A DNA stretch of 64,000 bases from IMG/VR virus record IMGVR_UViG_3300021400_000138, positions 96,001 to 160,000 of that record; one strand, written 5' to 3'. Under the pieces are notes generated by a model. It was not told where the DNA came from, did not search any database, and saw only the letters and a program-made list of their open reading frames with translations. Shown here piece after piece: positions 6,074-63,660 of this stretch. The DNA is from a virus (Duplodnaviria > Caudoviricetes). Within the stretch, counting starts at the first letter, position 1. Every line of letters begins with the position of its first letter. The translations under genes were made by a program, and so were the position numbers.

Positions 6074-6409
6074 TTACTTTTCTTCAATCTTATCTTTGTC
6101 TTTATTGAAAATCTTATCAAGCTGAGTATAAGCGTATTTCTGCGCCGCATCAAATGTGGCCTATACCAGTCCACGAATAGTTTCTTTGGTAAAGATTACT
6201 CTCATTGGCGCAGGAATTTTATCAAAAATAAATGAGACCACAAACTCTTGTTTGATAGATCCAGCCTTCATTACCGAGGAGTATTCCATCTCAGCTTCAC
6301 AAATTTTTTCTTGCGCCATTTCAATAATGTTGGTGCGGGTTTTAAGATAAACGACAATAAATCCAAGTAAAATCCATGCGATATTCAGCAATACTGTTCC
6401 AATATTCAT
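6074..6409 (-). CDS. holin-like membrane protein (111 aa, 1 TAG)
   Basis: N-terminal TM helix; frame continues through TAG 6161 (RGLVQATFDAAQKYA) to TAA 6074. Confidence 0.7.
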
Positions 6410-6422
6410 AAATCATTCCTCC

Positions 6423-6941
6423 TTAATACGTTGGAAATCCACTTTCAAGATATTCCGCATAGCGTTTCTTTATATATGCAATAGCAAGATCAACCTGTCC
6501 ATTTTCTAAATGATTTTCTACCAAAATCTTTTCATACTTGTCATATGTGGAAAGAATATGATCGAAATTTTCTTTGGAGTAATCCCGTTTTTGACATGCG
6601 TTACCAAAATCAAGTATCTCATATCTCATGCGTTCAATCTTGTCATCCAACATTGATTTCTTTATTCCATCAAGAGCGTCCATAATATTAGTTTGAAACT
6701 TTTTCATTTCTTCGTGATCAGATTCCTAGAGCTATTTAAGTTCTTGAGTCTCTTCTTCAATTTTATTAATCTTTTCACTCTACTCCTTTTCTCTCCGAGA
6801 TGCATTGGTACTAATACCAAACCTCTCTTTAAAATAGTCAAACAACTTAACAATCAACTAAAAAAATAACAACGCCGCCAAAATGGTAACAATAATTTCA
6901 CCTTTGTTACCAACAGATAATAATTGATTTAGCTCATCCAT
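6423..6941 (-). CDS. membrane/coiled-coil lysis-module protein (172 aa, 4 TAG)
   Basis: AAAGGAG RBS, ATG 6941, MDELNQLLSVGNKGEIIVTILAALLFFQLIVKLF TM; in frame with track ORF 6423-6707. Confidence 0.75.
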
Positions 6942-7018
6942 GACTCACTCCTTTCTAGACTTTACAATAAGTTAATTCCTTTTACTCAATATGATAAATT
7001 AAGAAATTAAATAACTTC

Positions 7019-7555
7019 TTAATTATCTTCTTTGTCATTATCAACTTTAACATTGGTTGTTTCATCCATAAAACTTAATACGCTAAGAAGATCATAATCT
7101 AACGAGGTATCATTTGGCAAACTATCAACAAAATCATCAATGTTAATTGTTGAAATTTCAATATCATTTTGTTCTCCCAATATTTCCTGTAACTTTTCAT
7201 TCAAATCGTTTACAGCGTTTGAATATTCATCATAATACTCATCTTTAATTTTTCTCATCTGAACCGTTTCTTCTGTTCCATCTTCTTTAAGAATAGGATT
7301 CCCATCGTCATCTTTTTTTACCTCGTAATATTCGGTTGATTTTTCTTCTGTAAAATATTTTCCTTGTAGTTCTTTTACCAGGCCGTCCCTAAATTCTTCA
7401 AAAGTTTTTACAATTGGTACAATTCTATCTATATTTTTTTTTAAATACCAACGCATTTTTGTCGGCAAGCTTTTTAATTGATCCTCTTCAACATTATTAA
7501 TAAATGCACAAATGTTAACAATGTCATACGTAGTAAATGTTTTAGTAATATTCAT
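7019..7555 (-). CDS. hypothetical acidic phage protein
   Basis: 178-aa ORF with AAGGAG RBS, no TAG. Confidence 0.65.
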   Translation of the reverse strand: MNITKTFTTYDIVNICAFINNVEEDQLKSLPTKMRWYLKKNIDRIVPIVKTFEEFRDGLVKELQGKYFTEEKSTEYYEVKKDDDGNPILKEDGTEETVQMRKIKDEYYDEYSNAVNDLNEKLQEILGEQNDIEISTINIDDFVDSLPNDTSLDYDLLSVLSFMDETTNVKVDNDKEDN

Positions 7556-7585
7556 AATTAATTCTCCTTTTTATTTCATAATAAT

Positions 7586-8509
7586 TTAGATTAAATACAT
7601 AAAGTTCATTCTTAGAGATCTTCCGCTAGAAATAGCAGTCCTTGTAAAGATTCCAGTTGTTGTATTGCCGCCAATTGTGATTCTATGTAATTCAACCGGA
7701 ATGTATCCGTCAACGGTACTAAAAATTAAAACAGGTGTATTATTTGAAACATCGCCTATATTTGGCAGGCCTTTTACAATGTCTGAAAGAACGGGAACTT
7801 CTGTAGTAATATTTAATTGAGCACAGAATCCAACAAAATTTTCATTCTTTATGCATTTATAATTAAGTGTTCCATAATCTGTAGTAATACCAGTTGTTAT
7901 TTTCTCTGCACCCCCGCTTATGTTCAATGAAGCGATTGCTTCCTATATGGTTTGTGGTTTCCCCGCCAACACAGATTCACTATATTGTTCAACGATAGCT
8001 TTTGCTAAAACACTATAATCAACTTTTTTTGCGCCATTGTTTGATGTTATCGCAATCGCATCAGAATTAGAAATTGTTGTTTGACTTTGTAATCCACTTA
8101 ATGAATTACTTAAAACATCTTTAGCAGCTATCTTATTTAATGTAGTTCCTCCTTTACTCACTAATAGATAATCAGATGCTGGAGTAATTGAAGATGCAGT
8201 TGATACACCGTTTATGTCCTAAAATGTAACATATGATTTCGTTGAATCAAACGATAATTTCTCAAAAATTGCATTACATATATCTGGAAATTGAATTCTT
8301 TTTACTTTGCTTCCATCAGATATAAAAACATAGTAACTGTCTGGAATTATAGTTGATGCAGCTACTGTATTAATATCTCTACTTCCAGCCAAACTACCAT
8401 TTATTTCATTGGTAAATGTTGCATTGCCAGTAAATGTAGCATTTTTGGCGGTTAATTCCTATGTTTCAATTGCTTCAGCAACCAAGTTATCATAACGTGC
8501 ATCGGCCAT
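7586..8509 (-). CDS. tail fibre-associated structural protein (307 aa, TAG-recoded)
   Basis: AGGAGG RBS, ATG 8509; joins track ORFs 7943-8161 and 7586-7927 in one frame. Confidence 0.7.
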
Positions 8510-8541
8510 ATATTCTCACCTCCTAATCATTGGTTGTCTTA

Positions 8542-9500: not shown

Positions 9501-11033
9501 TTATTTTAGATTATTTCCCACCATAAAGCCTGTGGTTCCCTGATAAGATACTTTATACCAGGTTTGTCCCGCAGAATTCTTGACCTTTTCAAGGGCGGTA
9601 AGTTTATCTCCTTTGCCAAGTGTAAGTAGAATAGTATATGTTTTATCCGTGCCATTACGGATATATCCGGGGGACTTTTTGATTGTCATGGTTTTTGGAT
9701 ATTCGGGTTTAGTTGAATTGATAACTTCTATAATCTTATTCCAAGTAATCGGACCAACAACTGAATCTTGATCAAGATAATGCTTCTGCTGAAATCTTCT
9801 CACGGCACTAGCCGTTAATTCCCCGAAATCTCCATCAACATCAAGATCCTCACCAAGTTGATTCAGATACTTTTGAAGTTTTTCAACATAAGAACCTTCA
9901 GAACCCTTCTTGAGAAGAGGATATGAATCCACAATATTTTCTGATGGGAGAGGAATAGAAGCGGAACTCCCAGAATCCGAAGCTACAGAAGAGCCACTAA
10001 CAAGCGCAGCTTTAAAAGCATTCCATTTGTTTTCGTTATAATCCGGTCCAATAGTTGGTATCCAACCTGAAACTCCTGGGCAATTTTTACCGCTTACGTT
10101 CCAATGCCTAATAACGTTTTCAATTGGAATATTATATTCTTTCATTAAATATTTTGTAAGTTTAATAAGATTTTGAATAGTCTTTTCTTTAAAATGCCAT
10201 CCAGAAGAATCTTGATAACAACAAGTTTCAATGCCCATAGAATTGCTATTCATACAAATTCTAAAATGACTTCCGCCAGCGCCACCATAATAAGAATCTC
10301 CGCAATGCCAACTATAATATTTTCTTGGATTTGGATTATATTCGCAAATGTCATTTTCATCAACAAAATAATCTGCGGAAGCAGATCTATCGCCTCCATT
10401 AAAATAAGATATATTGTTACGAGCTGTGCCAGAACTAGCCGTATAATGAATTACAATATACTTTGGTTGTACACCTCTGGTAGATACATTACATCCCTGG
10501 AAACCAGTATTTCTTACGATATTAATAGATTCTTCATCTTTTTTATTTTTATCTGGATCAATAACCACAGTGTCATATTTTGTCAGTCCATAAGTAGTAA
10601 TAACTCTATATACATTCTCAACATAATCCAGAGAAGTTGCATATCCATCGGCACGAATAAGTTCAAGATATCTATGAGGATCTATTACGCCTTTAAGATT
10701 TGCGTAATTGCTCGTATTAATGAACTGAAAATACCCCTCAACACCTTTCTCCATATTTTTAAAAGCGTACCATTGATCAGTAATTTTATAATACGACCCG
10801 TCAGCGTTCTGCTCTGCGGAACCATCAACAAATGTCCCATCATTACAGGATACTCTTCCTGGTCTGTATTTGAGTCCAAAATAATTATGATGTTGTGCTT
10901 TTGAAGAAGTACCAAAGGCGGATTCTAAACAAGCTTGCGCTATGATTGGCGAGGCTACTTCGATTCCATATTTTGGCCCGATCTTCTAAACATATGGAGC
11001 GATTTTCTAAATGAAATCAGTTTGTTTACTCAT
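9501..11033 (-). CDS. modular endolysin: GH73 glucosaminidase + amidase_2 + PG-binding + SH3b (510 aa, TAG at codons 9 and 16)
   Basis: IIAQACLESAFGTS..HNYFGLK and GYATSLDY (GH73); IVIHYTA, SMGIE, IRHWNVSGKNCPG (amidase_2); DGDFGELTASAVRRFQ (PG_binding_1); C-terminal WYKVSYQGTTGF. Confidence 0.9.
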
Positions 11034-11052
11034 ATACATCATTCCTTTCATA

Positions 11053-11090
11053 AACAAAAAAGAAGAGGCTAAAATTAAGCCCCTTCTTTT
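11053..11090 (-). terminator. intrinsic terminator after tail fibre
   Basis: AAGAAGGGGCT-taatttt-AGCCTCTTCTT followed by T run. Confidence 0.65.
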
Positions 11091-14000
11091 GATAACAGTT
11101 TTATTTGTTTCCTAAGTTTTTCGTTTTCTTCTTCGAGAGCGCGGATTCTGTGTTCATGATCTTGGACTACGGGAATGGTAAGCATTTGAAGTTCGGTGTA
11201 GTTAACAGAGTACATATCATTTTTTTCGTCATAAGAAACAAGACTCAAATTTTCGCAATTATATTTTTCCATTAATTTTTTTAATGTCTATGCTCCAATA
11301 CCTAAATGATGCCTTTTATCATTTATTCCAAGATGGTTTTTCCAAGTAAATTCTATTGGATTCAAGGACATAAATAAATCTTTATGATCAATTGAACCTT
11401 TTATATCTTTGTATCTTTCATCAGAACTATGGTTTGTGGAAATAGCATACACATATCCGTTCCATGTAGAATAAAATGAATAAGATGAACCTTGATTATT
11501 CCATTGTCTAACAATTCCAAATGCAACATCATTATCAGCTCCTGGATTTGTTTCACACATACTAATCCATCCATGACAAAGACTATAAATACTACCTACC
11601 CATCCATGTCCATATTTATTAGCTATAACGCCACCGTCCCATTTCACAGTAAATCTTTCCGATGAAATAACATTATTACTATAAATAGTATTTTTTAACC
11701 ATACCTAAATAGCATTAGCTCCAGAATCTTGTGAATAACCTTGACCGACACTTACATATCCGTTTATACCGCTGGCGTCCCTTTTCTCAGAAACTAATTC
11801 ACCCGAGCATTTAATATTTCCAGCATTCATTATTTCCCACCAACATGCAGATTTACCAACGTTATATCCATTTCCGCCCGTCATACCTTGAGCCGCATCA
11901 ATATAATAGCCAGTTCCTAATCTATTAAAACTAGTTTTATCTCTGTTATGCATTATATCTGGAAAATTTGTAACTTTCAATGATCCAACTTCTAACTAAC
12001 CTTTTATATAAGAATTCCCCGTCTATGTATTTACCCAAAACATACTTTCAAAACTATCTTCATTATAATACTGTCTAGTCATTCCCAAATTAGCCTAATC
12101 ATATGATAAATAATTATAATAATATCCATCAACACTAACACTTCTTAGCGCAATACCGCCTGGAACAATCCTTGTAGCATAAGTCATTTTATCTTTTGAG
12201 TCATGTCTTAATGAAATATTCCCAGGTGTCCAACCATCTACTACACATTGGAAATAAAATCTATTATCATCTGTTCCGATAGCCAAAGAATTGGGTGCCT
12301 TTTCTGAAGTATCTTTACTGGTTGTATCAAGAATATCTCCATTTTCATAATATAAAGAAGAATCACTAATATTTAAGCTACCAATTACTCCACCTTTTGC
12401 CGTTAATATACCTGAACTATTTACTTTAAACTTATCTGTAATACTTATTCCGTTTACACCAATATATGCTGACCCACCAGTTGCACTTCCCCAATTCTCA
12501 TTGTTTCTATATATAGCTGTATCTTTTACTGTCCAGCCACCAATTTCTGCAATTGTATCTGATGTTTGTTTTTCACGGACAACTATATTTTTAAATATAG
12601 TGGCCAATAACTAATCTTTATCAGAATCATCTACATATATATATAAACGATAATATACGGCATTACTTGGTGGATTTTTTATATAAAACTAGTCTTTAAT
12701 TGTTGCATAGCTTGCTGTTTGAGTTCCGGATAAAGAGCAAGATGATCCATTGCCTACTGTCTTAAGAAACTCATAATTTCTATCATATAAATCCATCTAG
12801 AAGTGCAAACTATATGATTTATAAGTAATATTTTCAGGGTGGTGATAACGAACATAATCAAAACTAGCCGAAAAATTCTATTGTCGATTATCGAATTTTT
12901 TAAATCGAGTTAAAAATATTCGTTGTACTATCGCTCCACTCGTTGTCGTTCTTTGTGATGTTGATAATGGTATAAGCGTTCTATATGCTTTGTCATTAGG
13001 TACGACTACACCAGTTGATTCCCAATCATCAATAGTTTGATTATATGCATCATCTTTAGTTTCATCAACTTCAACCATATTTACCCCTAATCCAACTGCT
13101 ATTTTATCAGCAGTAAGCGTCCCAGTAATATGAGCAGCATCCACCTCAAGAAAACCTTTATTTATAGAGCATCCACCTATTTCCCCGCTTGAAGCAAATA
13201 TTTCACCCCATATAATCGCGTTTGCCGCTCGTAAAGTTCCATCACTTGATACCTTAAAACCAGTTGCACCCTCTGTTGGTTCTTCTCCAACTTTACCGTC
13301 TTTGGCAATATATATGGTTAAATTTGGTTTATTAAGTAAATCCGAGTAATCACCAGATGTTGCAATCGGAGAAAAACTCGTCCAAAGACCTTTTATATTT
13401 CTAAATAGAGTTCTAGCTAAATTTTCTGATGAATTAGCATAAAATAACAATCTATAATACTTGCAATCAGACGTATAATTAGTTAAAGTTATAGTTGCAG
13501 ACATCGATTTATCGGCGCTTATACTTGGATCGATATTCATGATTACGGAATTTGTTGCCTGCAATTTTTGCTTATTTTCATTATAGTAGTATATATAAGC
13601 AGTAAGCGTATATGAATTAGGGTTCCTTAAAGTAGTTGCGATATAATCAAAACTAATTTCTATTGTATCATTTACACTAAAATGTCCTGGCTTTAAAACG
13701 GACAAATATACTCTGTTAACAGAGTTGTTGATTTCCATATAAGTATCATCAAAATAATCATATTTTGACCAATTACTATCAACTTTTGTATTTCCATAAT
13801 TAGTTTTATTTTCACCAACGTCCACAAGAGATGAAATAATATTATCTGACGTAATAACCCCTGGAAAAGTTACTCCAGGAGATACTGTTAATGACGTTGC
13901 ATTGATTGCTCCTGATACAACTGCATCATTACAATATAACTTTCCATTAGTAGTAACACCAAATTGATTAGATATAGTCATCATCCAATCTTCATTAACC

Positions 14001-17000
14001 GTTGTGTCACCAAAAGTCATAGTTGAAGTGCTGCCTTTTGGTTTAATAAATGCCGAACCATTTATTCCTGGAGTAGAGCTTTTGTAATATATCTTTTCTT
14101 CATCTATTACCCATCCGCCTAGTTCACCAGATAATGCATGTATATCACCAATAAAATACGCGTCGCCACCCTTAATACCAAAATTAGGAGTAAAAAAGTT
14201 ACCCGTTTCCAAATCTAAAAAGCTTCCTGTTATTGAGAAATTTCCCGCAGGAGTTTCTTCACCATCGTTTGCTCCTGCTTTATAATTTCGAGACATAATA
14301 GCATTAGTAGCTAACGATCTAGATAAAATCGTATCTGTTTCAATTAATCCGCCTTTAATTGTTGTTGTTTTATCTTGCGCAGTTGTTGACCAATTATCAA
14401 CAATATCTTTTGCAGTAATTATATCCGTTCCGTTATTATATATCCAATCATGATAGTCACTTTCGCCACCAGATCTTACAGTAGATGCATTGCGTGGTGG
14501 AACATATAAATAAGCATCAACAATTTTTCCTTCTGAACCTGATTCAACGAATTGTCCCAAAACTATATCTCGTTCTTCGTTCCATAACCATGTACCTCTA
14601 ATATTATTCGGCGTAGGAGTTACCGCATATTTCCATCCGTCTTTATACCAAACCATATATAATGTGCCATTATCTGCATCTTTATTGGTTAAACGGAGTA
14701 CTAAATATATGGTTTTCCAATATGGTGGTACAATATTTGGATCTATCATTGTTTTACTAACATTTATTTTTCTTGTATTCCAGTACACGTATCCATCTAC
14801 ATCTGCTGCATTTCCATCTTCGTCATATCCATGTAAATAGCATTCACCAAAGTTTTCGGCCTCAAACGAAGAATGATTTATTTTCATACCTAAGCCAATG
14901 TCAATCTTTTCATTTGCCAAAGCCGCACTATCTTGTGCATCAATTATTTCCTATTGTGCGTCCTCAGCAAGACCATGAAAAGTTACCAATCCATAAAGAT
15001 TAATGTGATCCGCAACAAGTTGGCCAACCCTATCTGTGAGAGTAAATGTAGTAGAGGTGCCAGTTCCGTTATTTCCAATGATCCATGAAAATTTATTAGC
15101 TGTTTGTTGTGCTATGCTTTTTATTGAACTACTTTTATTTCCAAGTATATCTTCCGAGATAATTCGAGTATGTTCTGAAGCGGTATCAGTAACTTCTTGA
15201 ACTCGCCTAGCAATATCCTTTACTTCAGTGCCATCTGCTTTGGTCCTTACTGTGGAACTAATATCTGAAATATTTGTTTTTATTCCATCTACATTTTGTT
15301 CCATCTCGGTAACACGATCTCTAATCTGTTTTGCAGTACTACCATCATATTCGTTTACATAATTTGTAATATCACTTTGCCATACTTTATTAGTTATTTG
15401 TTTTTCAACTTCATCAACCAGTGATATAACACCACCAATGATTGTCTCACAATATGCCTCAGAATACAGTACACTCGTGTCGCTCATGATATTCTCGAAT
15501 CGTTTCCATAGATATTCACCAGAATATAATTCTTCTGGTTCTGTATATGACCATACTCCACCAATTAATTCAGTATCCGAAGTAGAAATATAAAACTATT
15601 GCATTTGTCTAACTATATACGTACCATCTTTTCCATCTTTGCCATTTACTCCGTTTTTGCTAATCGTATATGCAACAGTTTCTTCACCGTCAGTAAAAAT
15701 AAATTTTACTCTCGTCCACAAATAAAGTCCTTCTGGAATATTCTGCGGAATTTCTGTACTCCATACTGAGTCGATAAATATATTATTCTCATCTAATAAT
15801 ACATCGTCACCATCTGTAAAAGCTCCACCAGGAATAACCGTATCAGAATCTGATAATGCGTATTCAACTATATATTCTTTGATTCCATTTCCAACAGTTC
15901 CATCATTAACAATCGGTATGGTTTGATAATCTAATATCTATTCAGCTCCGCCAGCTTCATATAACGAAATTCTCAATGCCATAATTTGATGATCTTTATC
16001 TGTAACAGGAGTTATAAATTCATGATTCGATTCATCTTCTTCTGAAATATAATTTTCTGTCCAGTTTTCATTATCCAACGTTGATTCAATTTTAAAACGG
16101 CCTTTATATAATTCCATATTTCCGCTTCCAACTTGCTTGTAAGCCTGGCTGGTTACTGTTGGTGGATTATATTGTCCATCCCATGTTCTACTGATTATTG
16201 CACTTGAAAGAAGCAATGTATAAACAGTGGTACTTTCGCCAGCCAATGTAAGCGAATAACTGAATTGTTTATTGAATGTCTTATCATCAATTGTACATGG
16301 GATAGTAAGCACACCACTTCTTGAAACCATCTCATTTGTAACATTTACTTTAAATGAAGCATCTATTGTACCATTATTAAATATTGAGGTTGTCATTCCA
16401 ACTGGACATCCAGTTATTGTACCAATTGTTACTTTTTGTTGTACAGTGCCTTTATATCCAATAACATTACAAGTAGTATTTGCTGCAATAGCTGCCGATG
16501 TATCTCCAGAAAAGGTATGAGATTCATTACTCAAAACAATAGTATAACCATCCGTTCCATCATCGCCCCTATCACCATAAACACCTATAATTACAGGTGT
16601 TGTCGTCGATGTTTCTCCGTCAGTATATTCTATTACTTCATAATTCCAAAGATATTTATTTGTATTTGTAACCGTTTGAATTGTTGTAGTCCATCCTGAG
16701 GTAGAAGTAGTTATTTCAGAATTTTCCGTGGTAGCTAAATAGTATTCTATAATTGCTGAAATTCCTTTTCCTGAATTTCCTTGTTCTCCCCATACACCAA
16801 TTACAACCTTATCAGTAGTTGCGGTTGATCCGTCCGTATATGTTACGAGTTCATAATTCCAAAGAAATCTATTCGTAGCCGTCATGGCTGGAATTGAAGA
16901 CCCGGTAGAAAACTCACTATCTTTTGGAGTACTAGTAGATGATTTATTAACAGCATAATATTCCGTAACGGAGGCAATACCAATACCATCGGATAAAACA

Positions 17001-19393
17001 GGAATTACTTGCTGATCAACCAGTGTAGTCATCCCTCCAGCAAGATACAAACTACATTTAACAGATTTTATACCGTTTGGTATTGTAAATGTATAAGATG
17101 ATTCATTACTTTTAGAAGAATAACCACTTGTCCACGTAGAATTGTCGGAAGACACATCAATTTTAAATCTTCCAGAATAGTCAGATAATTGCCCGTCGCC
17201 CCGTTGACTTTTTGCATGAAGAAGAATGGTTGCGGGATTATATTGTCCATTATCTTGTAAAACTATAGCAGCGTGTGAAATCGTTAAGGAATAACTAGTA
17301 GCAGCATCTCCTTTATCACCCTTGATCGCCAAAGAATAACTAAATTGCTTATTAATCGTACGTCCATCTATAGTTACCGGAATATTTAAAACACCATTAC
17401 GAGTATTCATAGATGTTGTAACTGTAACCGTAAATAATGCAGAGGTACTATTATTATTTGAAATAGCAACAGTCATGCCTGTTGGACATCCAGTAATTTC
17501 TCCAATTGTAACATCCTATTGTATAGCTCCTTTATAACCAATAACATTACAAGTTGTACTTCCGCTAACAGCCGCAGATGTTCCACCAGAAAAAGTATGA
17601 GATTCATTGCTAAGAATTACAGTATATGCATCTTCTCCTTGTTCTCCATATGTTCCTATAATTACTGGTGTAGTAGTATCTGCATCACCAGTTGTATAAT
17701 TAATTATCTCATAGTTCCATAAATACTTTTTTTCCGGTGTTATTGTTTGTATCGTAGTTGTCCATCCACTTGTAGCCGTTGTAACATCAGAGCTTTCAGA
17801 CGTAGCAAGATAACACTCTGTAATAGATTCAATTCCTCGTCCTTCACTTCCATCTGCTCCAAATACGCCTATAACCACTTTATCTGTTCTGTCTATATGT
17901 CCATCAGTATATGTAACTTCTTCATAATTCCACAGATATTTATTGGTTTCACTCATAGTTGGAATTGTTGTATCAAAACTCGCATCGGTTGGTGCAGCAG
18001 AAGAGGAGTTGTTAACCGCATAATATTCTATTACGGAAGAAATACCTATACCATCTGTAATTATCGGTACAGTTTGTTGATCAAGAAGAGTAGATGTTCC
18101 TTCAGCCATATATAAACTAACACGTATAGATTTTATTCCCTTTGATATTTTAAACGTCGTATTTGATTCATTAGAAGTTGAAACATACTTTTCTGCCCAT
18201 GAAGAATTATCCTACGTTGTTTCAATCTTAAATCTCCCATTATAATCCTGTAATGTATTATTGCCTTGTTGATATTTAGCAGATATAATAATACTACCTG
18301 GATTAAAATTTCCCACAGAATCAAGTACTACAGCAGCATGAGATATTTGCATAGAATAAGATATTGCAGAATCGCCATGAACACCAATAATAATTGGTTC
18401 TGTTGAATCATATTCTCCAGTAGAATATTTAATTGTTTCATAATTCCACAAATATTTTAATGTTTCAGATATTGGCTGCGGGATTTCTGTCCATCCCGTT
18501 GTGTCTATTGTTATTCCTGTTGATTGCGTTGATGCAAGATAATAATTTTTTATACTTTCAATAGATCTTCCATCTTCACTATACATTCCTATGATATGTT
18601 TCTCTGTTGCCACAATTGATCCATCAGAATAATCTACTATTTCATAATTCCATAAACACCTATTTTGATTATCTAATTCTGGAATAGTAGTTGTGAACAT
18701 TTTATCTTCTGGCATAATAGAAATAGAAGTAGAAACAGCATACATTTCTGTAATATTATTAATACCATTACCAGGAGCGCCGTTAAATGAAAGAGAATAT
18801 GTGAATAATTTTTCGAATGTAAGATCTCCAACAGTTATTGGAATGGTTAGCGTACCATTTTTTGTAATCATTTCTTGTGTTACGCTTACCATAAATTTTG
18901 AATTTAATGTTCCATTATTTTGAATCATTACGGTCATTCCCGCTGGCATGCCAGTAATTTCTCCAATAGTTGCCGGAACTTTGTTTCCCCCTTGATACGC
19001 ATAAACATTACATACCGTTGAACTTTCAATTGCTGAAAGATAAGAAGCTGGGAATGTATGATTTTCATTTGATAAAATGATAGTAAACGGATTTTCTCCA
19101 TTTCTTGAAACATTATATGAAACTGTTGATGTCCCATCCGTATAATATGTTGTTGTTCTTATCCATAACCATTCGCCAGCAGATGTTGTCGGAATTTCTG
19201 TAGACCATATTCCAGAATATAATGGATTACCCTCTGTATCTAATAATACGTTTCCTTCATCATCGGTTATAAAAGTTCCTGGTATAATTGTCCCAGAATT
19301 AGAAACCGCATATTCTACTACGGTTCTTAATATACCAACACCAGATTCACCATCATTAACATTTAATAAATCTATCCAACTTACAGAAAGCAT
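11075..19393 (-). CDS. giant tail fibre / host-specificity protein with C-terminal peptidase S74 chaperone (2772 aa, TAG-recoded)
   Basis: nine track ORFs share one frame separated only by TAG; GGAGGTG RBS; repeated ILSNE.HTF / YLWNYE modules; SDERYK...LGIGA(TAG=Q)...VNYTEL S74 motif. Confidence 0.88.
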
Positions 19394-19423
19394 GATATTC
19401 ACCTCCTCTCAAAATGATGTATC

Positions 19424-24900: not shown

Positions 24901-25703
24901 TCATCATAGTTCCAATCACGAATAGTTAAATCGTTATCTCCACGTATACGAAATCTCGTAAAAATAGAATCTTCATTTACAGATATATTTACACTTTTTG
25001 CAAGATTTCTAAATCCAATAAATATACCAGTATCTATATCTAACGCATTTCTGGAATGAGCATTAATTTTACAATGTAGAAAATCAAATGTGAATAAGAT
25101 GCCAAGTCTTGGCCCAACTTCTGTAGTTAAAATTGCATACAAGTTTGAATTCTCTAAAGAAATATTCGGCACTTTCAATATTTCCATAATTCTATCAAAT
25201 TCACCTATGCTCCAGAAGGACATTTTACTAAGAATAATATCCAGGAGAGATAACTCTTTATTTGCATTAACTACTGTGACATAATTTTTAGCAAATCCAA
25301 GTTCGTTAACATTATTAGATGCCAAATATTCTAATGAATCGCTTTCTCCTGTATTTACCTTAAATCCAAGCCAATCCTTATCTTCAAATTCCTTCTCTGC
25401 GGAATAAGCCGTTACTGTTTTGTACTCCTCGTTACCATCGTATTGTTGAGTAGGAGCCTATATTTGAAAATAACCTATTTCATCAATAAACAAATACATA
25501 TAGGCTTTAAGATCTTCATAACCAGCAGATACAACTTGCTAACCATCGACAACAATAAAACGATCTACGTCAAACGATAATTCTGAATAATCCTTTACTT
25601 GTTTATGCAGCTCAACTGTTTCTGTACGAACACCATTTAATGCATACAAAACTTGCCTATCTGGGGTGCATAAATAAATAATCTTTACATCTTGAATCAT
25701 CAT
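21951..25703 (-). CDS. Tal-like tail tip / baseplate hub protein (1250 aa, TAG-recoded)
   Basis: ATGA-coupled to Dit; five track fragments in one frame; position downstream of Dit and TMP. Confidence 0.75.
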
Positions 25704-47600: not shown

Positions 47601-50600
47601 GCTCAATATCTCAGCAAAAGACTTTAATGCATCCTTACTTTCGGAGATTTGCTGGAAAAGATTTCCGAATAATCCCTCCGTACTTGTACTAGCAAAAGAT
47701 TTGGTTAAATTCTGTAATTCCGTTTCAAAGCCTTTAATTACCTCTAACTCTTTTTGAATAATACCACTAATGGTTGTAATATCTTGAGTAAAGGCTTCAT
47801 TCTTTTTGTTAATGGCATCAGGCACTTTATTAATCAATTCACTTTCAAGCTCTCCAATAATTTGCTTTTCTTGGTCAACAACGTTTCTAACAACTTCAAC
47901 TTCTCCATTGAAAGCCGCATTTTTTGCACTTATAGCTTCTGGAATATCAACTTTCAACTTATTCTCAAGATCAGCAATGCTTAATACTTCATCTTTTACA
48001 TTGTCTGCTGGAACATCCCCGGCTTCGATCTGCAATGATTTTAATCCAAGAACAGATTGAATACCCTGAATAAGCCCATCAAAACTCTCTGAGAATTTTG
48101 TAATGCTTTCAGTTGATCCCTTAAAGAAATCTGTTGTCTAAAGCATTTCACGAAGAGAAGAAATAGAAGTAGTAATATCCTGAATTTGTTTCAATATAAC
48201 AGGAATACCAGATTCATCATCTATCATTTTGAACACATTAGAGATTTCTTGAATTTCTTTTAATAAACTTTCAAGACTTCCAAGCAACTCTTTTATTTGC
48301 TATTCGTCAAAAGCAGCAGCAACTGGTTTATCCGAACCGTTTGCAACTTCTTCTTGTGCAGACGCAACTTCTCTAATCGCACCAGCCGCGCCTTTAGCCG
48401 CCGCACCAAGGTTTTCCATATCCTCTGTTTCTGGTTCTATAGAAGTAGTAGGAGTAGATGGTGAGGTTTCAACTGGTTCAGATATTACTTTTTTCAACTC
48501 CTCTTTCTTTTTTTGAATTGCTGCAATATAATCTTCGTAAAACTTAATTGTATCTTCATTTTTAGATCTCTTTCTTGTTGCGCTTGCTTTCTTTTCTTCC
48601 GCTTCTAGGGCATCAATATCCGTATAAGAATCGATTGAAGCCATCTTTTGTTCGCGTTCTAACTCAACCTTAGTTTTCTTTTTGGCGGGAGCTTCAGTGG
48701 CTAATTCTCCAGAAGTAGAAGAGGAGAGTTTGGTCCATTTTTCTGTTACTTCATCAAATGTATATCCAAGTTCTTCGGCCTTTTTATTAAGTCTTTCTAT
48801 AGCTTGTTCGAATGGAAGATCTTGAGTTGTTATTGCCGCTTCCAGATCTTCGACGGTGTTTTTTAATTCTTCTGGAGCTTTTGATGCTCGGGCGTTGAAC
48901 TTTGTTGATAAATCTTCTGGGGTTTCATTAGATATTTTCTAAATATCCGCCTTAAATTTATTTTTCTGCTATATCAACTAAACAATTTGATTTTTTGCTT
49001 CTAATTCAGAAATTGCGCCATTGTAATAATCTATAAGCACCTATGCAAATTCTTCTGTTTTATTTTTTAACAATCTAACAGTGGCACCAAGAGCCTCATT
49101 AGATACCATCGACATTTCAGGATTTGATGTTATACTAAGGCCAGGTAAACCATATTGCTCACCATAACTATCACCTAAAACTCCACGATGCCCAGCAAAT
49201 CTAAACAAATACTATTCAACTGTCTCTTCCGGATTAGAAATATTATCTACGCTCGCAGAATTATTAGCTAATTTAAACACTTCTTGTAATGCTAAACTGA
49301 GTTCCTTTGCTGACATGGTGGCTTTATTTAACCCTTCAGAAATCTATTCCCCCATCTATTGACCAGTTTGCCCAGCTTGAACTTCTGACTCAGAAATAGT
49401 TTCTACTTGAGATGGGAGAATAGTAGTACCCGATGAAATCGGATTTTCACCAGATGTTTCGCGTTGTGTATCATTTAACTTCCCAACAGAATCTGCTGCG
49501 TCATCAGCAGCGGCAGCAATACCTTTTAACTTTTCTTCTGAAGATTCTGGAACAACAACGTTAATAGTCTATATCTTTTCAAAGCTTTCAACTAAGCTTT
49601 TTGTCTTATCAATCAATGTTTGCATTGCCGTGTTTAGCTATTCAAGATAGGAAATATCTTGATCAGATACGCCAAGTCCTTTTGCAAGAGTATTTTGTAG
49701 TTGCTATAACGCTTGTGCCAACTCACCAACGACACCTGACGCCTCTTTGGCTTCTTCTTCTCCACGCTTATCAATTGATTTTCCTAATATTTCAAAGGCT
49801 TCCTCTCTTAAAGATTTTCTATTATCTTTATGAGATGCGTTGATATCATTTATTTTTCTGATCTCAGAAGCAATATAAGACATCTCTGTACCGGGAGCAC
49901 GACTGGTTCCTTTACCTGTTAAATATTTGTAAACATCATAATATGGATTTTGTTCTAAATAAGAAGCAATTCTTTTTTGGTTCTATTCTTTCCATTCCTC
50001 AAATGAGCTAAGACCAGAATCCAAATATTCAGAGCTAAATTTTCCCCAAACATCGTCTTCCAACATTTCACTAATAGCTCTCTCCAAATTCTTCATAAAA
50101 TCCATTACTGCCTATATTCTTTCTTCTGGGTCTTTATTTTGTTCTATTACAGAAGATCTGCTGAAATATTCAACTATATCTCTTCCTGACGTCATCTACC
50201 TAAGATAATCTGACGAGGTAAGACCAACGAGAAATTGTTGCGGATCGCCTTCGTCTCCGCCCAATATTCGTTTATAAGCATCGCGGAATATAGAAAATAT
50301 CTTATCATAGGCATCTGTGTATCTCTTTGCTTGCCTCCTCCATACGTCTTCCTCAGCTTTAATCCTTTGTTGAACATCAAGGGAAGTGTCTTCTCTTAAA
50401 TTAACGTTAAACTCACTTTTCCCTATCTTTCTTTGCATTGCGCGAAGTCGTTCCCTTACAGACATGGTATCATTTCTAGCCGCGCCAGAACTACCATCAC
50501 CGATTACTCCGATTGATAAAGAAATATTATTTAATATACCAACGACTTCATTAAGTGCATTACTAAATGCTTGAATATTATCAATACTAAATGCGTCATC

Positions 50601-51935
50601 AATAGAAGAACCGATATTATTCAACTATTGCAATAAATCAGATAATCCACTTTTATCATCAATAGTGTCAAAACTATTCGAAAGTACCTAAACAGACTCC
50701 ACTAGTTGCTTTATTAATTCTATAAGAGCCTTTATTTCTTCCGATCCCCATGCATCACCTGGTTCAAAGTTTTGAACTGCCTCATTTAGTTTATTTTGAA
50801 TATATTCTACCTTGTCTGCATATTCTTGGTATTCGCGTAGGCGATCTTCCATATTTTCATTACGCAATTTATAATGCTCATCATCACCCGTATTATATGA
50901 ATCAACAGCGTGTTCGTCCCAATACTTAGCATCATCTAATGCCTCATCACGAAGCGCCTGAAGTTCTTTTAATGCCTTCTTATATCTTTCTATCTTTGGA
51001 AGATCCTCATCAATTGTAAACGAATAATCATTGACTTCCCAATCATACTCAATTTTATTCTTCCCTTTATATTGTGATTCTGCTTTTTTCTTTAATTCTT
51101 CAATAGATCTATAAGCTTTCTTTTGTCTTTCTGCCGATTCTTCTGTTGCCTTTGCCGCTTTCTCGGATGACTCCGCTGACTTTTCGCCAGCCTCCTCGGT
51201 TTTCTTCCCTGCATCTTCAGCAGCTTTTCCTTCTTCCTTCATAGAATCCGCTGTGTCTCCCGCAGCTTCTGCGGCTTTTGCCCATTCAATAGTATTGATT
51301 TTCGGGAGTTCTATCTGTGCCTTTTCAAACATTTCAAAGGTAGCACCAGCTTCTTCTCTTAATTCATCAAAATATCCAAAGACTCTTCTAAGATTTTCAA
51401 CTCCAAAAGTATTTCCCTTTTCTGGTTGTAGCGCCTCTAATTCTCGCATCCTATCTACAAATTCTTTTAGCTGTGGACTAACTTCTTCAAGATTGCCACC
51501 AAGTGCCTCAAAAGCATTCGCATATCTGAATACTTCAGTTGACGCTGTATTTTTAGGATCAACCATTTGATCTATAGTAAAGTTATTTTCTTTCTGTATA
51601 TTGCCAAGTTTATTCCATGATTCAATCAAGGAAGCCTAAGCATTATTTTGTGTTTGATAATATTTTTGTGCGTTTGTAACTCCGCGAATTGCGCCTGGTT
51701 CTGAAAGTTTTCTGGAATAGGCTTCCTCCATTCTTCGTTTAATTTCATTTACCTTTTCTTCATTACTTGGATCAAAGTCTATTTTGATTTTAATATTCTC
51801 TACTTTTTTGCTTGTAGCTCTTATTCCTGCTTCAAGCTCATCCGCTTTTTGTATTATTTTGTCTACTTTTTTCGAAAACTAATCATCATTCTTAATAATC
51901 TCGGCAACATCTATATAACCACTTTTCACACCCAT
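26615..51935 (-). CDS. tape measure protein, ~7473 aa; exons 45024-51935, 44527-44709, 42659-42928, 42218-42232, 28972-41966, 26615-28661; TAG=Gln
   Basis: AAGGAGGTG RBS/ATG 51935; track fragments in-frame across TAGs; splicing restores TMP motifs DKLNLVG|NNFAVSTDELA, RTISLRIAG|TEEAK, EALA|GKNRS|NIASSILLN, ALEGL|TDAESKAQKARL. Confidence 0.88.
28662..28971 (-). ncRNA. group I intron A in TMP (310 nt, no ORF)
   Basis: P1 GCCU/GGGC with U.G at splice site; TTCAACGACTA and GATATAGTC P7 strands; terminal G; removal fixes the frame change between 29304-29618 and 28034-28561. Confidence 0.9.
32250..35600 (-). repeat. three ~406-435 aa tandem repeats inside TMP
   Basis: GEEI.F..., DEDALVNE..G.E.I.R.G...E.P.GMH.EHLK.G.VILN recurs; equivalent Gln codons at 34899, 33594, 32376. 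Confidence 0.85.
41967..42217 (-). ncRNA. group I intron B in TMP (251 nt)
   Basis: P1 GGAGU/GCUCC; P10 AATATT pairs with exon start AATATT; CGTAACGATCA / TATGATCT P7; ends GTAACAAAATG. Confidence 0.85.
42234..42659 (-). ncRNA. group I intron C in TMP (426 nt; boundary ambiguous by 1 nt)
   Basis: AATTGCAGGTAA, GCAGCCAAG, TTCAACGACTA, AAGAAATAGTCT core motifs; P1 GGCU/GGCC. Confidence 0.85.
42929..44526 (-). mobile_element. group I intron D in TMP carrying a homing endonuclease (1598 nt)
   Basis: P1 CGGGU/GCCCG; CGTAGAGACTG / ACACAGTCC P7; ends GTAACAGATTG. Confidence 0.88.
43130..44398 (-). CDS. intron-encoded Vsr/DUF559-like (PD-(D/E)XK) homing endonuclease with Zn fingers and NUMOD1-like repeats (422 aa, 4 TAG)
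   Basis: AAAGGAG RBS; CTRC, CSNC; PTDIVNHRLKIAIEVQGQWH...RDNIKKQYWINRGY; YGSYADAARDN repeats; fragments 44030-44428 and 43226-43612 in one frame. Confidence 0.8.
44710..45023 (-). ncRNA. group I intron E in TMP (314 nt, apparently ends in A)
   Basis: P1 AGGU/GCCU; P10 TGTT pairs with exon AACA; CGTAACGACTG / TATACAGTCT P7; ends GTAACAGATCA. Confidence 0.85.
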
Positions 51936-55622: not shown

Positions 55623-57686
55623 TTAAGATGGTGTATTATCAACAGGTGTTCCGTTTAGATAATAGCAACTATCAAAATGTGTTTTTTCCGGTCTATTATC
55701 TGTCACTGTACTATGTCCAACACGAAATACACAATTTGCAAATTGAATACCGCCACCATTCTCAATAAAAATTGGAGTATAACTACCGAAATTGCAATTA
55801 GATAAAATAATTCCTTGAGAAGAAGCTAACTTGATTTTCCCATAGAATATTGAACATCCATTAAATATCTCGCCAGCTCCCATAGCATTTATATCAAGGG
55901 CATACCCATCTCCACGTCTCCCACTGTCATAATCTTTTGAACCAGTGTGATTAATTGTACAGCCTACAAATGCTCCATGACTATTATTGTTATAATTTCC
56001 TGAAGAATTATCCATTAAAACGCCATGCATATTTGTACTAAAATCACAATTTACAAATACATTATTTCCTCCATTATTTATAGCTCCGTAGTAGTTTTCA
56101 AAGAAGCCTGATCCAGATATCCTATGAAATTCAGCAATTTTACCAAGTGCAATACCTGCATTACAATTTCGTACAAAAATGTTATTAATATAACATCCGC
56201 CCTGCGGATTGTATCCTGTTCCAGATATATATATACCCGTTCCAGCAATACTACTTATACGAACATTTTCAACTTCACAACGGAAACGCTGAGAATCACT
56301 TGATCCTGTACCCTGAATTTTAATACCACAAGGTACAGAAGACGCTAATTCCCATTCAGAAGATGGAATTATATCTGTTAAAGAACCATATATCGCCAGA
56401 TTTTTTATTTTTGCATCGACAGACAAACTAACCATATAGTTAGACGTTGGATTTGATGTTTTAATTAGTCGTGTATTATTCCCACATCCTTCAATTGACT
56501 TATTTGCATTAATATCAATTTTATCAATATAATAATCACCCGGTGCAAGTCTGCATATATTTTTTGCTACCAGAATTCCTTCAATTTCTGGTCCACGATT
56601 ATTTAATGTACCGTCTGGAAATATGTCATAGCCTGTATATAATGGATCATTGTTAATAGTAACCCATTCTGACCAAACATTATTAACCATAACCCGTATA
56701 TACATTATTTTTTTCGTTGCATAATTAAATGGCAGTCCTAGTTGAAAAAAATGACCTTGAGTGTTGTTCGTAAATGAAACAATACATATACCATTTGCAG
56801 TAGGAAGATGCGCAAATCCAGCAGAAATCGCGTTAGTATGCACAGACACAATGGAATTAACTGGCAAGTCATCACAGTCAGAATAAGTTGATTCCATATT
56901 ACCAGCGGTTATAATCAATTCAGAAGATTGAATCGCACGGGGATTAAAAATGTTTAATGAGTATGGTACATAGCCAGAAGCGGCGTTACCTTTTTCTATT
57001 TGAAATTGTTTGATATCCCATATTGTTTTGCTATTATTACTGTATGCAATGACTATCCTTGATACTGTTTTTCCTGCTGTGGTAGTTCCGTACTTGTACA
57101 GATACGTACTCTGCGAATTGGAAAACTGGAACAGCAATGATGATGTGTTATCTGTATAGAAAGCATATACCCCCAAGCCATTATTTGTAAGCGCACTTGT
57201 TGTCTTTGCCTGCAAAGAAACAGTATACTGCTGTCCGGCTTCGTACTCTACTCCGTATATGTCACCATAAGTGTAAAGGGTATGAGGAAGAGCACTGAAA
57301 GTATCTCCATCTACAGTTATATTGGGTTTTGTCTTAAGTTTTTTTATGTCAAAAAGATTTACTCCCGTCTTTGATATCTGACTTATATCGTCTATTAAGT
57401 TTTCTATATTCTGATCTAAATCATCCCTTAAAGAAGAGACATCACTCACCAAACTACTATAATCCTCTGGAATACTATTCAAAATTTCTTGTGCCTGTTC
57501 AGCATAATATTTACTATTATCTTGATACCCAGGCTCTGTAGAAGATACCGCAATACCATTCCTAGTTCCCTTCGCATATGCCTCTGCATCATAAGTTATT
57601 TTTTCTCCCATTACATCAACGTTTACATAATTCCCAGTAATAGGATCCTTATATTTCACCGCATTCGGTTTTAAAGTAATAGGCAT
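55623..57686 (-). CDS. tailspike-like beta-helix (pectate-lyase fold) protein with carbohydrate-binding-like domain
   Basis: fibre-type N-terminus (DNSKYYAEQA), LAPGDYYI...SIEGCG, repeated N/G/C beta-helix rungs; no TAG in 687 codons. Confidence 0.75.
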   Translation of the reverse strand: MPITLKPNAVKYKDPITGNYVNVDVMGEKITYDAEAYAKGTRNGIAVSSTEPGYQDNSKYYAEQAQEILNSIPEDYSSLVSDVSSLRDDLDQNIENLIDDISQISKTGVNLFDIKKLKTKPNITVDGDTFSALPHTLYTYGDIYGVEYEAGQQYTVSLQAKTTSALTNNGLGVYAFYTDNTSSLLFQFSNSQSTYLYKYGTTTAGKTVSRIVIAYSNNSKTIWDIKQFQIEKGNAASGYVPYSLNIFNPRAIQSSELIITAGNMESTYSDCDDLPVNSIVSVHTNAISAGFAHLPTANGICIVSFTNNTQGHFFQLGLPFNYATKKIMYIRVMVNNVWSEWVTINNDPLYTGYDIFPDGTLNNRGPEIEGILVAKNICRLAPGDYYIDKIDINANKSIEGCGNNTRLIKTSNPTSNYMVSLSVDAKIKNLAIYGSLTDIIPSSEWELASSVPCGIKIQGTGSSDSQRFRCEVENVRISSIAGTGIYISGTGYNPQGGCYINNIFVRNCNAGIALGKIAEFHRISGSGFFENYYGAINNGGNNVFVNCDFSTNMHGVLMDNSSGNYNNNSHGAFVGCTINHTGSKDYDSGRRGDGYALDINAMGAGEIFNGCSIFYGKIKLASSQGIILSNCNFGSYTPIFIENGGGIQFANCVFRVGHSTVTDNRPEKTHFDSCYYLNGTPVDNTPS

Positions 57687-59939: not shown

Positions 59940-60092
59940 TTAATCGTCGTAATAATCTCGCATTTTTCGTGCGGATTTTCTGTCTCGTTCTCTATCACTC
60001 TCATCAATCTACTCATAAATAAGTTCCATTTCTTCTTCATCAATAAGATCACTAAGTTGCGATAGATCAATGTCTTTAATGTATTTACTCAT
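59940..60092 (-). CDS. small acidic protein (50 aa, 1 TAG)
   Basis: GGAG RBS, MSKYIKDIDLSQLSDLIDEEEMELIYEQIDES... Confidence 0.5.
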
Positions 60093-60186
60093 ATATTCAT
60101 TTCTCCAATATATAGAAATATTGCACCTCATATGCTATAATCATTTTGTAACCCGTCAACCCAGATTAATAGAAAGGAGGTGCAAT

Positions 60187-60324
60187 ATGCAACTTGTACT
60201 TGCTATTACCTTCCTTGAAGTACTGAGATAGTTAATCAAACTAGTTATTGTACACACAATTATTAACCATCCAGAACTGTCAAAGGAATAGGTTGAGGCT
60301 ATGACTTCTATGTATAAACATTGA
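60187..60324 (+). CDS. small hydrophobic protein, type I toxin-like (45 aa, 2 TAG)
   Basis: AGAAAGGAGG RBS; MQLVLAITFLEVLRQLIKLVIVHTIINHPELSKEQVEAMTSMYKH; extended -10 TGCTATAAT at 60133-60141; terminator follows. Confidence 0.6.
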
Positions 60325-60348
60325 GCCTCAATTCTTTAATCTCACACT

Positions 60349-60382
60349 TCACCGTAGTCTCCCGAAGGCTGCGGTGATTTTA
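60349..60382. terminator. terminator between convergent genes
   Basis: TCACCGTAGTCT-cccg-AAGGCTGCGGTGA-TTTT. Confidence 0.65.
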
Positions 60383-60814: not shown

Positions 60815-60824
60815 AACATCTACC

Positions 60825-61260: not shown

Positions 61261-61274
61261 AACTTTATACCTCT

Positions 61275-62300
61275 TTAAATAAAAGCCTCATCTGATTCAT
61301 CCGTCAAATCAGAACGAATAATGTAGCTTGATTCGGTTGTTTCTACCGATTCATGACCAAGTAACTTCTAAGCAACTTTCGGTGATTTATGTTCATAAAC
61401 AACAAGATTTGTTGCCTTACTTTCACGCCAAATATGAGACATAACACGACGGCCAACAAGTTTTGTCAATAATCCAGAACACCATTCGTTGAACGTTGTC
61501 TCACTTACTTGTTTCACATTTCCATCTTTATCTTTGGTAACAAACAAATATGGACAATCATCATCACCACGAACTTCCAACCATTTCTTTATTGCATCCA
61601 TAGCGTCTTGATCAAATTTAAGGCGACGTCGCTTGCCCTCTTTGCTGGGTCCCTTCGCTCGAAGAATATGTGTTGTATAAAACCTAGATATTCCGATTTG
61701 TTCTTTTCCATCTTCATCAATATATTTAATCTCTTTAACAATAGGTTCATAATCTGCAATTTCTTTAAGAAGTTGTCTTGTCTCCGCTCTACGAGCAGCC
61801 GAGCTATATGAGAATTTTACATAAGCAAGAATTTGCCATTTTTCAAGCTCTTCAAGTTTATTGTAAAGATCTTCCATTTCTTCTGGAGTAAGAGGATGTT
61901 TTTCATGCACAAACCCTGTTTTTACAACTTTCATACTTGAGGTAACAAAACTTCTGAAAGTCGGATATTCATCTTCATAGTACTCTACTATATAATTGCA
62001 AAAAGAACTAATAACAGATTTTTTCATTTTTATTGCAGACTCTGAAAGACCACGATTTGTAAGCCAATTAAGATATCTTACAAATTCTTTTTTCTTTATA
62101 TCAACACAATCTTTATCCTTTAATGATTCATGTACCCACCAGAAAAATATTCGAAGAGCAGAAGAGTACTGAATTTTTGATTGATCACTAAGTTCAATTT
62201 TGTATTCTAAAAATTCCTAGACCATATTACGGTTAAATTCATTTACTTGCTGCCACATCTCATCAGTTATTTCATCAGAGTGTTTCGCAACTTGACCCAT
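61275..62300 (-). CDS. second tyrosine recombinase (341 aa, 2 TAG)
   Basis: AARRAE (R), SHIWRES (HxxR), VA(TAG=Q)KLLGHESVETTESSY (H,Y). Confidence 0.85.
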
Positions 62301-62320
62301 TGTCATCACCTACCTTTATT

Positions 62321-62563
62321 TTAAGACAACTTCCTCTTACACCAAAGGTCATAACATTCCTTAGAAGAGTTCTTATCAAAAACAAATACCAGAACATTCT
62401 TCCCAGTATTTCTATCCTAACTAGTATATATATCAATCAGTTCGACGTCATTCTTTATATACATAGCCGCCTAGTCTATATTAAGTATTCTTACAACATC
62501 TTTGCTAAAATAATCATACCTTTTTCCTGTTACCTAACTTCGTTTAATGAATTCATCGTCCAT
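62321..62563 (-). CDS. small conserved phage protein (80 aa, 3 TAG)
   Basis: GAGGAGG RBS; VVRILNIDQAAMYIKNDVELIDIY...VLVFVFDK...YDLWCKR. Confidence 0.65.
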
Positions 62564-62564
62564 A

Positions 62565-62798
62565 TTAAGCCTCCTCTCTGAGTACAGAAATAATAATCTC
62601 CGACGTTTTAACAAGTTCTTCTTGTGCATAGGGACTATCTGAAACATCCTTTAACAATCCACGGGCAAGATAGAGGGGAAGATTAGTAACGAACTCATCT
62701 TCCTCGTCTGTAGTTTCGTCATAGGATGTTTTGATTTTATCCTAGATTTGGTTATATCTATCCAGGACTGATCGTGTATTTGAATAGAAATCTATCAT
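62565..62798 (-). CDS. hypothetical protein (77 aa, 1 TAG)
   Basis: AAAGGAG RBS, ATG 62798, TAA 62565. Confidence 0.55.
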
Positions 62799-62820
62799 GA
62801 TTGTTTTCTCCTTTTAGTCA

Positions 62821-63660
62821 TCAAAAATCTAACATTGTTTCGTCTATTTCTAGGGTATCTGAGTCATATTGATTCATATATTCATAAACATCGAAATGTT
62901 CCATAATACCAAGTTCTCGACGTTTTGTATTTACATATTCTTCAAATTGTTCTGGAGTATTATTGTATCTGCCATACACATTATGAAAGCTACCTTCAAA
63001 AGCAGTGCTATGATATTTCGCTCCAATACACACTCCGCAATTTATATCAAACCTTGTATTCGGATATAGTGCAAATGAATATATATGATGAACTTCAAGA
63101 TTCTATGTCTCACCAGATATAATACATCTGCCCCGATCTTTCTCTATAACTCCTTTACGAAATTGATAATATTCTGGAGTTTTTCGCAAATCTTCTGTTT
63201 TTTGAATTTCAGCTTTTGGTCTTCTATGTCCGATTGAACCACGACATGTAAGTTTTTTGCCAGATGTAAGTTTATAAATAGAAGAGGATATAACTTGTCC
63301 ACATGAACATTGACAAAAATAATATGGCATACGATTACTATTATTTGATTTTTCTTCATCGTATCCAATAACTGTAAGTTCACCAAATACCTGACCCGTC
63401 ATATCTTTCGGATTATTGTATTCACATTCCTTACAAATCAATTTATGATCTGGCCTATCTACTATATTTAAAATTCTTCTTAATTCACTTTCGTGTATTC
63501 CGTTAGGGCATTTAAAATAATACTTTTGCTTCGTCCCATACGGAATCTCTGATGGCAATTTATCATTCTTTTCATAATCCCAAAGATCTAATATATCATG
63601 ACGATTATTTGATAAACACCATTCTTCAAAAGTCTATTTGTATGTATATTTATTTCCCAT
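62821..63660 (-). CDS. Zn-ribbon HNH endonuclease (279 aa, 2 TAG)
   Basis: AAGGAGG RBS; WDYEKN..PSEI...YFKC; CIISGETQNLEVHHI...FHNVYGRYNNTPEQF. Confidence 0.8.

Follow-up and report, generated by a model that had tools for sequence, protein, structure and literature searches.

The bacteriophage genome recorded in IMG/VR as IMGVR_UViG_3300021400_000138 very probably works with two genetic codes: the standard code in its early genes, and a variant in which TAG specifies glutamine (Gln, Q) in its late genes. The record comprises 185,390 bp with a G+C content of 34.6%; it has direct terminal repeats and is classed by IMG/VR as a complete virus genome. Early and middle genes, mostly small and on the plus strand, occupy contig 12-102 kb, and minus-strand virion, lysis, and packaging genes, including those for the portal, terminase, and head proteins, form the late block at contig 102-185 kb. 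The stretch analyzed here, termed the window, comprises 64,000 nucleotides (bases 96001-160000 of the record); positions are those of the window unless the contig is named. Two elements are of primary concern: the minus-strand span 6074-63660 (34% G+C), which makes up the first two thirds of a late block that runs past the window to the contig end, and a suppressor tRNA with anticodon CUA that is encoded next to this span.

TAG as a sense codon in the late genes

Under translation table 11, the minus strand of the span is divided into many short open reading frames (ORFs). Once TAG is treated as a sense codon, these fragments merge into 32 minus-strand ORFs with 18,134 codons and 148 in-frame TAGs, in agreement with a first-pass annotation of the sequence that had described collinear minus-strand fragments parted by TAG alone. 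The features of the window are as follows.

6074-63660, minus strand: recoded late block of tail, lysis, tape-measure, and recombination genes (32 ORFs, 148 TAGs)
28905-41969, minus strand: tape-measure-like ORF, 4354 amino acids (aa), 32 TAGs
44994-51935, minus strand: tape-measure-like ORF, 2313 aa, 30 TAGs; the C-terminus matches tape measure PHROG 4211
11075-19402, minus strand: tail fibre, 2775 aa, 14 TAGs; C-terminal Peptidase_S74 chaperone domain
21951-25712, minus strand: minor tail protein, 1253 aa, 19 TAGs
9501-11057, minus strand: endolysin with glucosaminidase, amidase_2, PG-binding, and SH3 domains (Pfam), 2 TAGs (residues 17 and 24)
61275-62309, minus strand: XerC/D-like tyrosine recombinase, 2 TAGs, one at the Q of the Q-x-LLGH motif
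63771-63866, minus strand: the sole suppressor tRNA, anticodon CUA (ARAGORN; Rfam tRNA match of 46.1 bits at 63773-63865, which appears with relaxed filters)
3394-4617, plus strand: tyrosine integrase without TAG (Pfam Phage_integrase, E = 3.4e-21), which closes the standard-code block
1-6000, plus strand: end of the early/middle block, for which the standard code suffices and TAG read-through adds nothing

Further merged late products include an 836-aa tail protein, HNH endonucleases, and a RusA-like resolvase; the portal gene, a late gene outside the window, holds eight TAGs.

Four of the merged ORFs are giants of 4354, 2775, 2313, and 1253 aa. TAA and TGA together account for 3.5-7.7% of codons in the off-frames of the span, and the chance of a 4354-codon frame free of both is about 1e-67 or below. 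Pfam domain and PHROG matches run across the TAGs in the merged ORFs. Coding density, a check that the first-pass annotation had proposed, increases as expected for a sense codon: with TAG as sense, greedy ORF cover reaches 0.954 in the span (0.725 under table 11) and 0.944 across the late half (0.741 under table 11), and the late-half ORFs number 69 instead of 122. The early half is unchanged by the same treatment (0.860 to 0.866). Control reassignments of TGA or TAA to sense gave no gain specific to the late half, just a small rise common to the whole genome.

With 198 TAGs in the late genes, or 7.6 per 1000 codons, about 18% of the Gln codons there are TAG; the early half has 1.6 in-frame TAGs per 1000 codons. 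Among the 178 early ORFs, 13 terminate at TAG; read-through would extend 12 of these by 1-63 codons and one by 103. In eight of the 13, a back-up TAA or TGA lies 1-5 codons past the terminal TAG; these second stops may protect early proteins from read-through at the stage when the suppressor is produced.

The first-pass annotation had also stated that no resolved gene ends in TAG. This is true under the TAG-sense model, into which it is built by construction, but a TAG ending is conceivable for a few ORFs of the window in which TAG lies 0-13 codons from the ORF end (the 4354-aa ORF and the small ORFs at 42653-42955 and 60070-60324). In the late genes as a whole, TAG is a sense codon.

The residue inserted at TAG

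Matches of the portal protein in protein databases were set aside as evidence for the residue: one 100%-identical 548-aa entry is itself a code-15 translation, so that Q at its TAG positions is possibly circular. Because protein databases hold code-15 translations, the comparison was moved to codons at the DNA level. DNA around portal homologues was fetched from 79 IMG/VR loci, stop-to-stop frames were called with TAG masked, and 13 late-gene families were aligned codon by codon; all counts are thus of true codons in DNA rather than of residues in database proteins. Sixteen of the loci are recoded, with 0.3-1.3 TAG per 100 codons, and the remainder have no in-frame TAG besides the stop at the gene end.

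A Codetta-like sum of log-odds, the second check named in the first-pass annotation, favors Gln over every other residue. For the 37 TAG columns of this phage in the 13 families, Q scores +35.2 and the next residue, K, scores -21.8; for all 161 TAG columns the values are +103 for Q and -83 for E. In a control, the same score recovered the correct residue for 17 sense codons and failed for TGG alone, since masking the sole Trp codon strips W from the reference. When TAG columns are compared with standard-code relatives alone, the conserved columns hold Q 11 times, E 5, K 4, and S, D, and N 3 each. This profile resembles those of the Gln codons in the same test (CAA: Q 12, K 9, N 7, E 5; CAG: Q 12, K 6, E 4). 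It is unlike those of TAT and TAC (Y in 83 of 129 and 54 of 76 conserved columns), TTA and TTG, or TCA and TCT; Tyr, Leu, and Ser codons show their own residue in about 43-71% of conserved columns.

In relatives that are at least 70% identical, the partner of TAG is CAA in 238 cases, TAG in 206, CAG in 82, and any other codon in 189. These genomes prefer CAA for Gln, and because CAA differs from TAG at two bases, the exchange of TAG with CAA is synonymous rather than a C-to-T echo of CAG.

Individual sites in the window fit the same assignment, and the four motif and repeat examples quoted in the first-pass annotation were all found with TAG and CAA codons as claimed. Tape-measure repeats have TAG at 34899-34901 and 33594-33596 versus CAA at 32376-32378, and tail-fibre repeats have TAG at 17516-17518 versus CAA at 16436-16438. 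The Peptidase_S74 motif G-x-x-A-Q reads G-I-G-A-TAG (TAG at 11288-11290), and the recombinase motif reads TAG-K-LLGH (TAG at 61368-61370). In solved standard-code proteins, the residue aligned to each of these motif TAGs is Q (phage T5 pb1, G-L-T-V-Q; Pyrococcus XerA, I-I-Q-E-LLGH), and the recombinase column holds Q in 10 of 10 homologues.

Database homologues of the tail fibre are consistent with Gln at low power: 7 of its 14 TAG columns have aligned homologue residues, with a Q share of 0.19 (reference shares of Q are 0.20 at true Q positions and 0.01-0.05 at other residue types). A single-protein scan among relatives found no homologue of the 1253-aa protein, and the 836-aa protein is unmatched in five complete relatives; on these comparisons, the tail module is evidently not conserved among relatives. 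Taken together, the alignments, and mainly the homologue codons of standard-code relatives, strongly support Gln as the predicted meaning of TAG in the late genes.

A suppressor tRNA with two anticodon-like arms

Besides the gene with anticodon CUA, the genome encodes two further tRNAs, Leu-UAA and Pro-UGG. The CUA tRNA is 96 nt long and folds into five arms, with an extra arm of about 23 nt, and its gene is flanked on both sides by terminator-like hairpins on the late strand. The loop of the anticodon arm (arm A) is CUCUAAA. The loop of the arm in the place of a long variable arm (arm B) is CUCUGAA, which equals U33-CUG-A37 of tRNA-Gln and, in this phage, is one base apart from the true anticodon loop. 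Arm B thus presents a 7-nt, anticodon-like loop rather than the short loop of a class II tRNA. The acceptor stem begins A1-U72, G2-U71, G3-C70, with discriminator A73, and resembles that of the tRNA-Gln(UUG) of a relative (A1-U72, G2, G3, C4, C5). The nearest kin of the CUA tRNA are other CUA tRNAs, including one of plain 75-nt form. An origin from class II tRNAs (Tyr, Ser, Leu) was considered and rejected, as the CUA tRNA is dissimilar to those tRNAs in the relatives.

Of the 16 recoded related loci, 9 encode a CUA tRNA, and several of those without one are short fragments; the standard-code loci encode none. Nine distinct long CUA tRNAs, retrieved through portal homology with the loop ignored and representing four stem lineages, were aligned. 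Their extra-arm loops read U-C/U-U-G-A, with four invariant columns, and the helix closing the loop shows compensatory changes (C-G to G-C). Between close relatives the extra-arm loops differ just by CUG versus UUG, both of which are Gln anticodons. Pairing in the five-arm structure across the nine tRNAs is 94.9%, versus 65% for shuffled sequences and 41-53% when the structure is slid. A pattern scan of IMG/VR for two-armed CUA tRNAs returned eight more distinct examples; these provide no evidence of loop conservation, because the pattern itself demanded a YUGA loop.

A tentative but serious possibility is that the extra arm is a decoy Gln anticodon arm: arm A would read UAG at the ribosome, while arm B would preserve acceptance by the anticodon-reading glutaminyl-tRNA synthetase (GlnRS) of the host or another Gln-specific factor. 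If true, this would explain efficient Gln charging of the CUA tRNA in a phage without a synthetase of its own. No published description of a CUA tRNA with a spare Gln-anticodon arm was found.

Neither a protein with an RF-1 domain nor a class Ic (Glu/Gln) synthetase is encoded in the genome, and in the absence of the latter a host enzyme would have to charge the CUA tRNA. A distant relative of the phage, with a portal 41% identical, is a prophage in a 378-kb contig of a Lachnospiraceae metagenome-assembled genome (MAG), and that MAG encodes a true GlnRS (717 bits versus a cut-off of 426 bits). An anticodon-reading Gln enzyme in the host lineage is therefore plausible.

Several further observations concern tRNA genes in this family. 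The CUA tRNA is directly downstream of the portal gene in four recoded relatives (L003, L011, L012, and L015) and about 4-6 kb upstream of it in three others; in this phage the two are about 18 kb apart. In one recoded relative classed as a provirus (L094:409-693, G003), ARAGORN predicts a CUA tRNA with a 197-nt insert in the anticodon loop, and several other tRNAs of relatives hold inserts of 35-64 nt. A search beside the tRNA for a theta ribozyme (PMC10879173), by Rfam E-value scan of 63650-63980, gave the tRNA alone, the theta descriptor not being included in that scan.

A proposed two-code program and its alternatives

In the proposed program, the early and middle plus-strand genes, including the integrase, would be readable by a host with the standard code and would be expressed first. 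Late proteins would be made only once the phage tRNA(CUA) is present and has been charged with Gln by a host enzyme. On the model of Borges et al. for other recoded phages, this switch would gate late and lytic expression, keeping the lytic genes silent under standard decoding. Since two of the tape-measure pieces hold 62 TAGs between them (32 and 30), highly efficient decoding would be needed, and decoding is probably near complete.

A view in which TAG remains mainly a stop, with rare leaky read-through throttling the late genes and no true reassignment, could draw on the early genes, which keep TAG as a terminator, and on the finding of neither a phage release factor nor an RF1 inhibitor. 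It is very unlikely given the TAG load of single genes (32 and 30 in the tape-measure pieces, 19 in the tail protein, and 8 in the portal): at 90% read-through per site, only about 3% of the 4354-aa product would be full length. The share of TAG among late-gene Gln codons and a dedicated tRNA kept across the recoded clade also argue against it. Sense decoding of TAG as Tyr, Ser, or Leu is highly unlikely. It would suit a 96-nt tRNA whose extra arm and A73 resemble those of bacterial class II tRNAs, and standard-code relatives do have Y at two conserved TAG columns, and in some internal repeats the partner of TAG is S, T, or L. The codon itself behaves otherwise: the log-odds of S, L, and Y fall far under that of Q, the column profile is of the CAA/CAG type rather than that of Tyr, Leu, or Ser codons, and in close relatives CAA or CAG accounts for 320 of 509 non-TAG partners. 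The CUA tRNAs, moreover, cluster with one another and with the 75-nt CUA tRNA, apart from the Tyr, Ser, and Leu tRNAs of the family, and the extra arm bears a Gln anticodon loop.

The host could in principle itself read TAG as Gln, with the phage mirroring its host and no code switch taking place. This is extremely unlikely, as in-frame TAG is far from evenly distributed (1.6 per 1000 codons early versus 7.6 late), 13 early ORFs end in TAG, and the phage has a CUA tRNA of its own; published recoded phages infect standard-code hosts. We know of no bacterium that uses code 15. The chance that there is no recoding, and that the late region has decayed or been mis-assembled, is negligible. Although the late genes are fragmented under table 11, their frames are interrupted by TAG alone, with TAA and TGA missing over up to 13 kb; the same pattern, with conserved proteins, recurs in 16 related IMG/VR loci, and the genome is complete with terminal repeats.

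Several points nevertheless count against reading the late genes as Gln-recoded and the phage as switching codes. Most of the decisive TAG columns come from late genes at contig 160-185 kb, immediately beyond the window, and the tail genes within it have few alignable homologues. The first-pass annotation had derived Gln from the repeats of the window; its conclusion stands on the homologue codons, but the repeats themselves are equivocal and too weak to name the residue, since a chunked all-against-all blastp of late proteins gave as TAG partners Q 6, T 5, S 4, E 3, A 3, and others. The long-armed shape and A73 give the CUA tRNA the look of a class II tRNA. In bacteria, a long extra arm together with A73 marks a Ser, Leu, or Tyr tRNA rather than one for Gln; here the long arm is present, but the codon behaves as Gln. 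The presumed host code and Gln-charging route derive from a single Lachnospiraceae MAG, the timing and regulatory role proposed above comes from published work, and the assignment of Gln is supported at the level of sequence rather than of protein.

Lineage and genome organization

A tblastn search of GenBank phages with the portal returned matches of 22.5-25.9% identity over 85-94% of the query in the Lactococcus 949 group, Brevibacillus Sundance, Staphylococcus SPbeta-like phages, and large Bacillus siphophages. A homologous portal, a large genome, and a very long tape measure, the traits taken here to mark SPbeta and Lactococcus 949-like siphophages, are all present. By these comparisons the phage is a large siphophage and a distant relative, and only that, of the SPbeta and Lactococcus 949-like phages.

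The tape-measure-like gene consists of at least three in-line pieces on the minus strand of the window between 26615 and 51935: 44994-51935 (2313 aa), 28905-41969 (4354 aa), and 26615-28561 (648 aa), which sum to about 7300 aa. An HNH-endonuclease ORF (43130-44428) occupies one of the gaps between them, and the 4354-aa piece terminates with TAG followed by an immediate stop. No group I intron was found in the window by Rfam at the gathering threshold. Amid the heavily recoded genes, a 687-aa ORF (55623-57686, minus strand) has no TAG and no Pfam or PHROG match. Beyond the window, in the region at contig 180728-182824, similarity to the terminase large subunit is limited to a 164-aa ORF; the ORFs next to it, of 417, 352, and 174 aa, are conserved without an assigned name, which would fit a split terminase gene.

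As noted in the first-pass annotation, recoding is accompanied here by an integrase, whose gene at 3394-4617 is free of TAG. The attP site named alongside it did not emerge: no tRNA-like match lies in 4560-5060, and no tRNA fragment or other mark was found beside the integrase gene. A scan of a genome collection found no close prophage copy; IMG/VR lists one recoded relative as a provirus. The integrase is adjoined by a GmrSD-N-like protein (5005-6000, plus strand) that has a 33% identical paralogue at contig 34471-35463.

Relation to known recoded phages and significance

Late-gene recoding of TAG to Gln, suppressor tRNAs, temperate recoded phages, and large recoded siphophages of Clostridia are all already published. 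Borges et al. (bioRxiv 10.1101/2021.08.26.457843) described TAG-recoded Garnet and Topaz prophages with TAG-free integrases, and Peters et al. (PMC9523058) provided proteomic proof of TAG as Gln in crAss-like phages. This phage shares with the code-15 gut phages of Borges et al. the presence of TAG, aligned with Gln, in late, structural, and lysis genes, a phage tRNA(CUA), early genes and an integrase free of TAG, and a host that presumably uses the standard code. It differs in belonging to a 185-kb siphophage lineage with distant SPbeta and Lactococcus 949-like kin, in samples that look rumen- or gut-derived and a host that is likely of the Lachnospiraceae type, and in its extreme dependence on suppression, with 62 TAGs in tape-measure pieces. 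It also has no gene for an aminoacyl-tRNA synthetase or release factor, and its suppressor tRNA carries the extra Gln-anticodon arm.

Babkin et al. 2023 (PMC10607447) described phAss-1 and the proposed Phassvirus group, large recoded siphovirus-like phages of Clostridia-type hosts. Features held in common with phAss-1 are TAG inside the terminase, portal, tape-measure, and tail fibre genes, a very long tape measure (about 3150 aa in phAss-1), suppressor tRNA genes, and the lack of a phage synthetase. No close kinship was detected, however: the phAss-1 group was absent from the GenBank phage matches of the portal. The phAss-1 genome is 136 kb with three suppressor tRNAs, whereas the present genome is 185 kb with one, plus an integrase. 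The CUA tRNA can also be compared with amber suppressors of the supE type (tRNA-Gln with CUG changed to CUA): both read UAG and insert Gln, in the phage tRNA by prediction, and the acceptor stem is similar to that of tRNA-Gln(UUG). In contrast to supE, the tRNA described here is phage-encoded, is conserved over the recoded clade, has a fifth arm that keeps a CUG/UUG loop, and has A73 rather than G73.

For genome annotation, table 11 makes the entire virion and lysis module of this phage unreadable, and gene calling needs TAG as Gln. Late-gene amber recoding would be extended to a large siphophage lineage of Firmicutes-type hosts that is distant from SPbeta, and because recoded and standard-code clades are adjacent in one family, the evolutionary path to recoding could be traced. 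The unusual element of this phage is its two-armed suppressor tRNA, which may be a more important lead than the recoding itself. If the conserved spare Gln-anticodon arm functions as proposed, it would represent a new way to hold tRNA identity while changing the codon that is read, and the design would be relevant to the engineering of suppressor tRNAs.

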